Source: a virus
UHGV virus genome: UHGV-1658972
Reading direction: 5' to 3' (one strand)
Length of the DNA stretch: 14,153 nucleotides
Below, piece by piece: positions 3,001 to 6,000 of this stretch. Each line of letters starts with the position of its first letter. Within the stretch, counting starts at the first letter, position 1. Position numbers: made by a program.

Positions 3001-6000
3001 TTTGCGATATTTCACGCTTATCATTCAGAGTCAGAATCATCATCTTTCTCCTGTTCTTTGTGCTGATTGAGCATTTTGTTCATCTGACGAATGAATTCTT
3101 CGTCTGACCAGTTATCTGTAAAACTCATTTCCTGCGATACCACGGAAGGTTGATAGCTGATTTCATCGCTTTATTTGCTTCAAGCCACATTTTTGAATCA
3201 CCAATAAATCTGGCTATTACTGCTTTGTTTTGTGCCGCACGAAGCATCTGGTGATTAATGGCTATTTCATTGCGCATAATAAGACCTCAACTCTTTTCCA
3301 TCCGTCACGTAATTTACGGGTGATTCGTTCAAGTAAAGATTCATTTAATTGGAAGGCACCCATGCGAGCGCCTCCCGCGATTGCGTAAATCATGGGTGGT
3401 TCCTTATGTTGGTTTTATTAGTAGGTTATTTTTGTTGCGAATACTTCGCCTTTTACGATGGCTGTTATGATATTTTTAGCAACATCTTCTGATGCGCCAA
3501 CCTTGATAAGGTCAGCAAGTATTTTGTTATTTACTTCTTTTCGGTGAGCTTTATCCTTTGCTCTACGCTCTTCTTCGTCCTTGATTCTTTTTTCTTCTGC
3601 TATTCTGGCTTGCTCTTTTGCTTCAGCCTCGCGCCGGATTCGTTCAGCCTCCTCCTGTGCTTTTCTGCGTTCTGCTTCAATTGCCGCCTGCTTTTCTCTT
3701 TCAGCTCGTTCTGCTGCCTCTTTTGCTTCGCGCAGTGCTCGTTGCTCGGCTTCAATGCGTTCACGCTCTGCACGTTCCGCTGCGGCCTTAGCTTCTGCTT
3801 CTCGCCTTGCTGCTGCTTCAATTTCGGCTTTTGCCTTTGCTTCGGCTTCTGCTCTGGCTTTCTCTTCAGCTTCTCTTTTTAAGCGTTCTTCATGCTCTCG
3901 CTTTTCCTGCTCCGCTTTGAGTCTTGCCTCTTCTCTTTGGCGGTCAAATTCGCGATCCATCAAAATAGCTATTTCATGGTCAGACTCAATTTGCTTTGCG
4001 AGAGCTTCAGCTGCTGCCTTAGCTTCTTCTTCGGCTTTAATCCGCGCCTGTTCTTCCTCATAATCAGTAAGAGGCTGGCGTGCCTTGGCTTTCAGCTCAT
4101 CAAGGCGATCACGCACTGTCTTGCGGTTAGCATCAATTAGCTTTGGAATTTCCTTCAGTTCAGCAACAAGGTCTTTGCCAAGACCATCGAGATATGTTTT
4201 CGTCTGCGCAACTTTATACGCCAGAGAAGCGATCTCCTTTCTGCCCTTTGCCGTTGTGATATCAGGCACAAAGGACATAACTTCACGTTCAACCTTTTGA
4301 AGGATTTCTTCAATCTGGTCGGCAGACTGAAATACAGTCATTGCATTTGCTTTTTCAATAACAACTAAATCTGTTACTTCACTCATATATCCTCCATCAA
4401 AAAAATTGCCCTCACACTGGAGGGCAAAGAAGATTTCCAATAATCAGAACAAGTCGGCTCCTGTTTAGTTACGAGCGACATTGCTCAGTGTATTCACTCG
4501 TTGGAATGAATACACAGTGCAGTGTTTATTCTGTTGTTTATGCCAAAAGAAGGCCGACTATGCGGCCTGTGATGTTAGATTTACTTTCATTTTTGAACGG
4601 CAGCTACAATTATGATGGAATGTACAAAACCACTTTCCAGTTCATAGAAGTGGATGATGGCATAAAATAATCCCACGACTCGTTAGCTACGAGCTCTTTA
4701 TTAACTGTGGTGGCAGCAATTTCGGCATCGCCTTTATTATTAAAAATGTCGTTCGAATACTGACATTTTCCATCTGCATGCACATATAAAATATCATATG
4801 TCTCTGTATCGTAATAACCACTTATGTCTCTGATAACAATTCCTGGCTTCAATGATTTAATTTTCTCGTCCATATCTCACCTCAAATAAGTGGTTTGCTG
4901 CGAAAATAAATCCGCTTAAGTTACCTGTTATTTATCCCACCAAGTTCCGTATCTATCTATCCAGTTACACCAATCATCGACACTCCATTTTGCTGTGTCG
5001 CATTTTGGCAAATGGCATGAATATCTACCTTCTTTGTAAAGTCGGCGTTTGACTTTCTTGAGCATGGCTCACCTCAATCGTAATAAGCTGGAATTGATTT
5101 TCCGCGTTGTTTCTGGCGGCCTGAGCAAGTCACACCCATTTCACTGCGTGGCTTGCGGTAGTAAATACGGTTCTGTTTACGCTCGACTTCTTCTGCCTTC
5201 TTGCAGCGAAGGCTTCCGAGTGATGCTGCTTTATCTGCTCTGACGCAACCAGAGAGCTTTAGCGCAATTTTTCGCGCCAGTCGCTGCTCTTGCATTGCCT
5301 GTTCACGTTGAGCCTGTCTGCGTGCTCTGCGGCGATTTCTGGCGTTATCGTCAGCCAGATATGTAATGACTACTGCCATGTTGACCTCCGATGATTGACT
5401 TTGGCGATTGGATGGCCGGTGCTGAACTCCGGCTTATTTACAGGCACCTTGTTCTCCCGAAGCTCTCCTGCGCGCATCAGCCTGCGCATTCATCCAATCC
5501 CAAAGCCAACTACTCTTTGGTTCCCGCATTTCGGCGGGACAATTCCATCAATGTTAAAGAGCCTGCCAATCTGTTCCGTTTGGCTACCAGCGTCCTGCTG
5601 ATGGCTTAAATTTAAGATCTCTTTAATTAATGGTCAAGAGTATTTTTGAAGAAAACTTAAATTTTCTTTCGTAACTTAAGTTTGGCTTTGATTTTTAAAG
5701 GAAATAAAAAAAGGGGCGAATGCCCCCTTATGGAAGGTTTGCTAGTTTTGCATCGACAACTACGCCGATGATTTTGCAGTTCCCGTTGATCTCGATCATC
5801 GGATATTGTGGGTTAAGTGGTTTTAGAAACTTCCTGCCTGCATCAATAACTAACTTCTTGAAAGTTGCCTCGTTTTCTCCTTCGAGCTTTGCAACTACCA
5901 GTTTCCCGTTACGCGGCTCTACTTCAGGATCGACGAGTATTATCATTCCTTCAGGGATACTGAGACCGGCCGGAGCCGTCATTGAGTCTCCCTTCACGTC

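Follow-up and report, generated by a model that had tools for sequence, protein, structure and literature searches.

cIII and kil genes and the adjoining small gene orf35 in the early-left operon of a mosaic lambdoid prophage

Small genes at the locus

The 14,153-nucleotide (nt) stretch of the virus genome UHGV-1658972 analysed here (the window, with positions counted from its first letter) carries three small, overlapping minus-strand open reading frames (ORFs), which we identify as cIII, kil and a further gene that we call orf35. A sequence-only reading of the window had proposed that the first two were relatives of lambda cIII and kil missed by the ORF track, and that the third was translationally coupled to them. 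When the minus strand was read over 2900..3600 and ORFs of at least 20 amino acids were listed, all three were found where that reading had placed them:

3262..3393, minus strand: cIII, ATG start, 43 amino acids, MIYAIAGGARMGAFQLNESLLERITRKLRDGWKRVEVLLCAMK (minus-strand reading and ORF listing)
3125..3277, minus strand: kil, ATG start, 50 amino acids, MRNEIAINHQMLRAAQNKAVIARFIGDSKMWLEANKAMKSAINLPWYRRK (minus-strand reading and ORF listing)
3021..3128, minus strand: orf35, 35 amino acids, MSFTDNWSDEEFIRQMNKMLNQHKEQEKDDDSDSE; acidic, and the first gene of the RecT module
3401..3406, minus strand: Shine-Dalgarno sequence of cIII, TAAGGA, in a block conserved in four phage sequences

The genes are closely packed. 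The 16-nt overlap of cIII and kil is followed by an ATGA overlap between the kil TGA stop and the orf35 ATG, and the 3' end of orf35 runs 20 to 23 nt into the next gene (start at 3040 or 3043). The orf35 product has 11 acidic and 4 basic residues.

Both cIII and kil are absent from the ORF track because of its size cutoff only. That they were 'missed' is true of that track, in which they fall below the cutoff, but not of annotation by the Prokaryotic Genome Annotation Pipeline (PGAP), which records both in identical DNA. In strain MS1657, where the DNA is 100% identical, the PGAP entries WP_001243355.1 ('host cell division inhibitory peptide Kil') and WP_000638547.1 ('protease FtsH-inhibitory lysogeny factor CIII') map exactly onto the kil and cIII coordinates above, and the Sf6 record already labels genes 32 and 31 as putative FtsH protease inhibitor and putative cell-division inhibitor. 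An 801-nt query across the region found at least a partial match in 2180 of 5426 complete Escherichia coli genomes. The cIII and kil genes described here are known, routinely annotated genes and are nothing new.

Identity of cIII

The 43-amino-acid ORF matched Pfam Lambda_CIII (PF02061) with 56 bits (gathering score 25.7, E 4e-15) and phrog_550 (E 1.6e-20), aligned with lambda CIII by BLASTP with 24/35 identities (E 1e-13), and encodes a protein identical to Sf6 gp32. In lambda CIII, residues 14-37 are both necessary and sufficient for activity and make up an amphipathic helix, and the substitutions S17A, R24A, L26A, R27A and R32A give a cIII-minus phenotype (Kobiler et al., PMC1838920). Over that essential region the window protein is identical to lambda at 18 of 24 positions, with lambda residues 16-32 fully identical; all five of these functional residues lie inside the identical 17-residue stretch, ESLLERITRKLRDGWKR, which the earlier reading had quoted exactly as it occurs in the ORF. 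The hydrophobic moment of the window protein was 0.55 compared with a shuffle mean of 0.25, a value reached by 1.7% of shuffles (p 0.017), and this moment, calculated from the sequence, predicts an amphipathic helix here as well. Two classes of CIII protein, lambda and HK022, have been described (PMC1838920), and the window CIII belongs to the lambda class and not to the HK022 class.

The cIII start lies in a block (ATAAGGA, 5 to 6 nt, CCATG) that does not vary between the window, lambda, P22 and HK97. In the record of phage Louie, cIII is called as a shortened product of 33 amino acids from internal Met11; we prefer the 43-amino-acid start because both the Shine-Dalgarno sequence and the N-terminus are conserved. 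PHROG 550 and records derived from it label the protein 'CIII anti-termination', a mismatch with the known role of CIII as an FtsH inhibitor. Lambda-style structural control of cIII translation by the mRNA was considered, but we do not claim it: the local fold was unremarkable (z = -1.8) and the region had no Rfam match.

Identity of kil

The 50-amino-acid ORF matched Pfam Lambda_Kil (PF06301) with 72.6 bits (gathering score 27.6, E 1.7e-20) over the full 31-position model, a family signature carried by 32/32 of its relatives. Its best PHROG was phrog_2055 (E 1.2e-35), and BLASTP alignment with lambda Kil gave 17/30 identities (E 3e-9). The encoded protein has exactly the sequence of HK97 gp43 and Sf6 gp31, and the five nucleotide differences between the gene and its Sf6 counterpart are all synonymous. 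The ORF carries ARFIGDSKM, to which ATFIGDEKM corresponds in lambda Kil.

Lambda Kil requires an intact core of helix (residues 4-18), G19-D20 turn and helix (21-38) (Naha et al., PMC11762379). An AlphaFold2 model of the window Kil, made with 13 aligned sequences as input, has a helix at 2-25, a turn at G26-D27 and a second helix at 28-42 (mean predicted local distance difference test score 81.8). In the alignment the G26-D27 turn falls opposite lambda G19-D20, and the model agrees with the helix-turn-helix reported for lambda Kil.

Family membership could still conceal a change of target, with the window Kil acting without ZipA or on another component of the divisome or elongation machinery, as Rac KilR and P22 Kil may. 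Such a change would fit a core identity to lambda Kil of only 17/30, a best match (phrog_2055) that differs from the weaker-scoring Kil PHROGs 3924 and 2461, and the extended N-terminus and altered C-terminus described below; in addition, Rac KilR is reported to be a dual inhibitor (PMC12482147). However, the turn region with FIGD-x-KM is conserved, as are both helices, the predicted fold matches that of lambda, and KilR presumably belongs to a different family from Lambda_Kil. The Kil of HK629, which is also diverged, keeps ZipA-dependent disruption of the Z-ring (PMC11762379). We consider a diverged target a minor rival, and an improbable one.

The resemblances to CIII and Kil proposed by the sequence-only reading were borne out for both proteins by curated hidden Markov models (HMMs), by identity to Sf6 proteins (and, for Kil, to HK97 as well), by conserved functional residues in CIII and the predicted helix-turn-helix in Kil, and by synteny. 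The pairwise alignments with lambda CIII and Kil that it had suggested as a check were both significant, and the similarities go well beyond chance. What the analysis itself shows for this locus is homology, retention of the critical residues, a predicted fold, synteny and annotation that already exists.

Operon context and proposed mechanism

The window covers the early part of a prophage, lambdoid or P22-like and mosaic, with a canonical early-left operon. The features that place the small genes in it are as follows:

6753..7046, plus strand: cII-like activator (phrog_191 E 8.5e-42; PGAP, lambda phage CII family protein)
5728..6378, minus strand: CI/LexA-family prophage repressor (phrog_4 E 3.4e-64; PGAP, LexA family protein)
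5609..5637, minus strand: candidate pL-like sigma-70 promoter (TTGACC, 17 nt, TAAATT), a 9/12 consensus match only
5074..5379, minus strand: N-like antiterminator (phrog_271 E 5.4e-36)
Between the N-like gene and the coiled-coil gene, minus strand: orf87, an 87-amino-acid ORF
4551..4568 and 4406..4427, minus strand: terminator-like hairpins, consensus matches only
3418..4386, minus strand: 322-amino-acid coiled-coil protein of the Sf6 gene 33 type (phrog_1376 E 7e-110; the Sf6 annotation agrees)
2732..3040, minus strand: orf103, a conserved gene with an alternative start at 3043 (phrog_3486 E 3.7e-59; PGAP, hypothetical protein WP_000604110.1)
1824..2735, minus strand: recT, single-strand annealing recombinase (Pfam RecT E 2.9e-32; phrog_148 E 7.9e-92)
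After recT and last in the minus-strand order: Mu-Gam-like/gp157 gene

The minus-strand order is therefore repressor, pL-like match, N-like gene, hairpins, orf87, coiled-coil gene, cIII, kil, orf35, orf103, recT and the Mu-Gam-like/gp157 gene, and cIII and kil do sit where the earlier reading put them, with N on one side and the recombination genes on the other. The pL-like candidate sits between the repressor gene and the N-like gene. The coiled-coil gene, whose product PGAP names hypothetical, coiled-coil or TolA-like, lies directly upstream of cIII and makes, with orf87, two extra genes between N and cIII. Both terminator-like hairpins fall in the interval from the N-like gene/orf87 to the coiled-coil gene, where N-dependent tL-type terminators would be expected.

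In lambda, CIII competitively inhibits FtsH and so stabilises CII (PMC1838920), and Kil blocks FtsZ-ring assembly through ZipA (PMC3961180). By analogy with lambda we infer the activities of the two proteins here, transcription from pL and translational coupling. Loss of the repressor, or infection, would start pL transcription, which the N-like protein would antiterminate through cIII, kil, orf35, orf103, recT and the gam-like gene. The amphipathic helix of CIII would competitively inhibit the host FtsH protease; CII, encoded on the opposite strand, would then be stabilised and lysogeny favoured. The helix-turn-helix of Kil would disrupt the FtsZ ring in a ZipA-dependent manner and cause transient filamentation in lytic growth. 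Translation of orf35 would probably occur by reinitiation at its ATGA overlap with kil.

We are highly confident that this region of a mosaic E. coli prophage, lambdoid or P22-like, is the part of its early-left (pL) operon that carries cIII and kil, with CIII and Kil expected to act as they do in lambda. Several points weigh against this. The pL candidate matches the consensus at only 9 of 12 positions, and matches of that quality are no commoner there than in shuffled sequence. Kil of the HK97/Sf6 type has ~57% identity with lambda Kil in the 30-residue core, and we found no published test of a Kil of that type, those tested being lambda and HK629 Kil (PMC3961180, PMC11762379). The NCBIfam HMMs gave no match for CIII, Kil or any of the other small proteins; because that scan was without matches, we infer that the PGAP names must come from a rule set other than the NCBIfam HMMs.

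The size cutoff of the ORF track thus hides two textbook prophage genes, one concerned with the lysis-lysogeny decision and the other with a block to host division. Their identification assigns the window to the early-left operon of a lambdoid phage of mosaic make-up and has little import beyond correct annotation.

Elsewhere in the window, a replication module on the plus strand (7344..10681) encodes an O-like initiator (315 amino acids) and a 797-amino-acid primase/DnaB-like helicase fusion, and is unlike the O/P module of the MS1657 prophage, which is identical in other respects. The late-regulatory part holds two adjacent plus-strand tRNA genes, Asn (gtt) at 13214..13288 and Thr (tgt) at 13294..13369 (Rfam, ARAGORN). 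Neither the complete E. coli genomes nor the deposited phages include one that covers at least 80% of the whole window; the best partial matches are CUS-3, Gally and Kapi1.

A mosaic junction within orf35

Ungapped comparison with Sf6, HK140 and HK97 located one further feature:

3079..3128, minus strand: 50-nt shared linker, the first 16 to 17 codons of orf35

Identity between the window and Sf6 is 97-99% from 3428 down to 3079 and falls to ~24% beyond, while identity to HK140 is 99-100% from 3128 downward and 24-31% upstream. With HK97 the similarity is confined to ~3279..3079, kil and the linker. The boundaries of megablast matches agree with these breakpoints, and the 50 nt of 3079..3128 are common to all of the compared phages despite unrelated flanks. 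This segment is the join of an Sf6-type cIII-kil module and an HK140-type RecT module, and it looks like a classic lambdoid module-boundary linker.

The exact orf35 product was found on at least 1000 contigs, always from the ATG; the protein search was made with a 40-amino-acid GTG-extended reading, and all gene callers take the ATG start. It matches phrog_17766 (E 7.6e-16) and phrog_2123 (E 5.3e-10), is called hypothetical in phage Louie and is without PGAP annotation in identical DNA. Among 80 IMG/VR loci, for which only those with an identical orf35 protein were retained, RecT was downstream in 80/80, while the ORF upstream at the ATGA was this Kil in 33 and a 56-amino-acid HK140-type ORF in ~45. 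As RecT is always downstream and the upstream ORF varies, orf35 belongs to the RecT module and not to cIII/kil. The ATGA overlap with the kil stop, on which the sequence-only reading had proposed coupling, is present, but in evolutionary terms the 35-amino-acid ORF goes with its downstream neighbours.

The 56-amino-acid ORF (MQQFAIAGAASVRPFNPILSVQHSRKNILTGADFKQPRMKSLLEKLWDILKQQGRP; HK140 1926..2096), annotated as CIII, replaces kil before orf35 with the same ATGA overlap. It has a CIII-like N-terminus and keeps a KSLLEK..DILKQ segment, without the lambda core motif, and the phages that carry it seem to be without kil at that position. On the other side of orf35, orf103 always lies between orf35 and recT in the RecT module; it is a candidate RecT-associated factor because it is linked to recT by an overlap of its stop with the recT start, again as ATGA.

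What orf35 may do

Residues 1-16 of the orf35 product are identical to HK97 gp42.1 and Sf6 gp30 (16/21 over the first 21). The genes for those two proteins likewise start at the kil stop; the proteins have in common with orf35 the N-terminal segment MSFTDNWSDEEFIRQM, which begins at the kil stop codon, but not the C-terminal part. Other relatives join this N-terminus to different sequences: the 69-amino-acid P0051 fuses the orf35 N-terminus (through ..EQEKDDD) to the last 38 residues of orf103 (DDDCNYQEK...), which suggests a deletion between two DDD-encoding repeats, and P0140 fuses a gp42.1-type N-terminus to a DUF551 domain.

Such free exchange of C-termini (versions of 35, 52, 60 and 83 amino acids, as well as the two fusions) raises the possibility that the orf35 product does nothing as a protein, the conserved 5' end being kept as a DNA linker for recombination between modules or the short ORF serving to pass ribosomes from kil to orf103 and recT. 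The first 50 nt are, moreover, identical across unrelated flanks and coincide with the mosaic breakpoints, and the start lacks a Shine-Dalgarno sequence at proper spacing, with AGGA only 1 nt from the ATG. Substitutions relative to diverged copies are few and mostly nonsynonymous (0 synonymous/3 nonsynonymous, 2/4 and 0/5 in the codon-position comparison), too few differences for that comparison to be informative. A test of synonymous variation on the 80 IMG/VR copies was discarded as biased, since it could draw on identical-protein loci only. Set against these points, the frame is open in every relative whereas the other two frames contain 2 to 7 stops, and the diverged relatives P0153, P0156 and P0157 keep the N-terminal motif with conservative changes (S/T, D/E, I/V) together with acidic tails, which suggests selection on the peptide. 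These conservative substitutions and recurring acidic tails favour a real orf35 peptide, and we regard the absence of a protein function as possible but doubtful. We take orf35 to be a real, uncharacterised and widespread small gene at the module junction.

Another reading is that orf35 encodes an accessory recombination factor like Arf, in which case its small acidic product would aid the adjacent single-strand annealing protein (RecT here; Erf in HK97, Sf6 and P22). Its position is that of P22 arf, between kil and the gene for the annealing protein, although the 103-amino-acid ORF also precedes recT here; SDEEFI near its N-terminus is common to P22 Arf; the source of one relative, P0056, gives it the name 'accessory recombination function protein'; and the co-occurrence with RecT in all of the IMG/VR loci is in keeping with such a role. 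At the level of profiles, a match to the PHROG Arf family (E 0.086) and a pairwise hhalign comparison (E 6e-4 over 21 columns) point in the same direction, but the hhalign probability was only 29%, and Pfam Arf (PF17585), carried by all of the Arf relatives themselves, matched neither orf35 nor ten of its relatives even when E values as high as 1 were allowed. When 1.84 billion proteins were searched exhaustively with a profile, 28 clusters came back, of which 0/12 inspected and 0/10 scanned were Arf-like. The C-terminal parts are unrelated to Arf, and the molecular function of Arf itself is unknown (PMC12315714). We find an Arf-like role rather unlikely. Beyond the short motif, Pfam, PHROG, hhalign and the exhaustive profile search do not support membership of orf35 in the Arf family.

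More speculatively, and in our view unlikely as a whole, the orf35 family (a W-S-D-E-E-F-I N-terminus with a C-terminus that varies and is often acidic) could serve lambdoid recombination modules in general as an accessory peptide. It would then be an analogue or distant relative of P22 Arf that works with both RecT and Erf, and its conserved 5' end would at the same time be the DNA linker where exchange between cIII-kil and recombination modules takes place.

Comparison with known systems

The window CIII shares with lambda CIII its family, the 17-residue core ESLLERITRKLRDGWKR, the N-terminal AIAG, the ribosome-binding site, the position in the pL operon, the overlap with the kil start and a CII partner gene. 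It differs in length (43 compared with 54 amino acids), being without the lambda C-terminal tail NQPGVPKNGSNTYGYPD, and ends in LLCAMK, like HK97 CIII but unlike lambda. The overlap of cIII with kil is 16 nt in the window and 32 nt in lambda.

With lambda Kil, the window protein has in common the PF06301 family, the helix, G-D turn and helix, and the FIGD-x-KM motif, and its gene likewise follows cIII directly in the pL operon and overlaps the cIII 3' end. Its N-terminus is ~8 residues longer, however, and its C-terminus is different (PWYRRK). The kil stop overlaps orf35 in the window but gam in lambda.

The closest likeness upstream is to Sf6, with DNA 97-99% identical to the window from coiled-coil gene 33 through kil. 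Below 3079 the window has an HK140-type RecT module, whereas Sf6 and HK97 have an Erf module. P22 Arf and HK97 gp42.1/Sf6 gp30 occupy the same slot as orf35, which differs from them in being paired with RecT and not with Erf.

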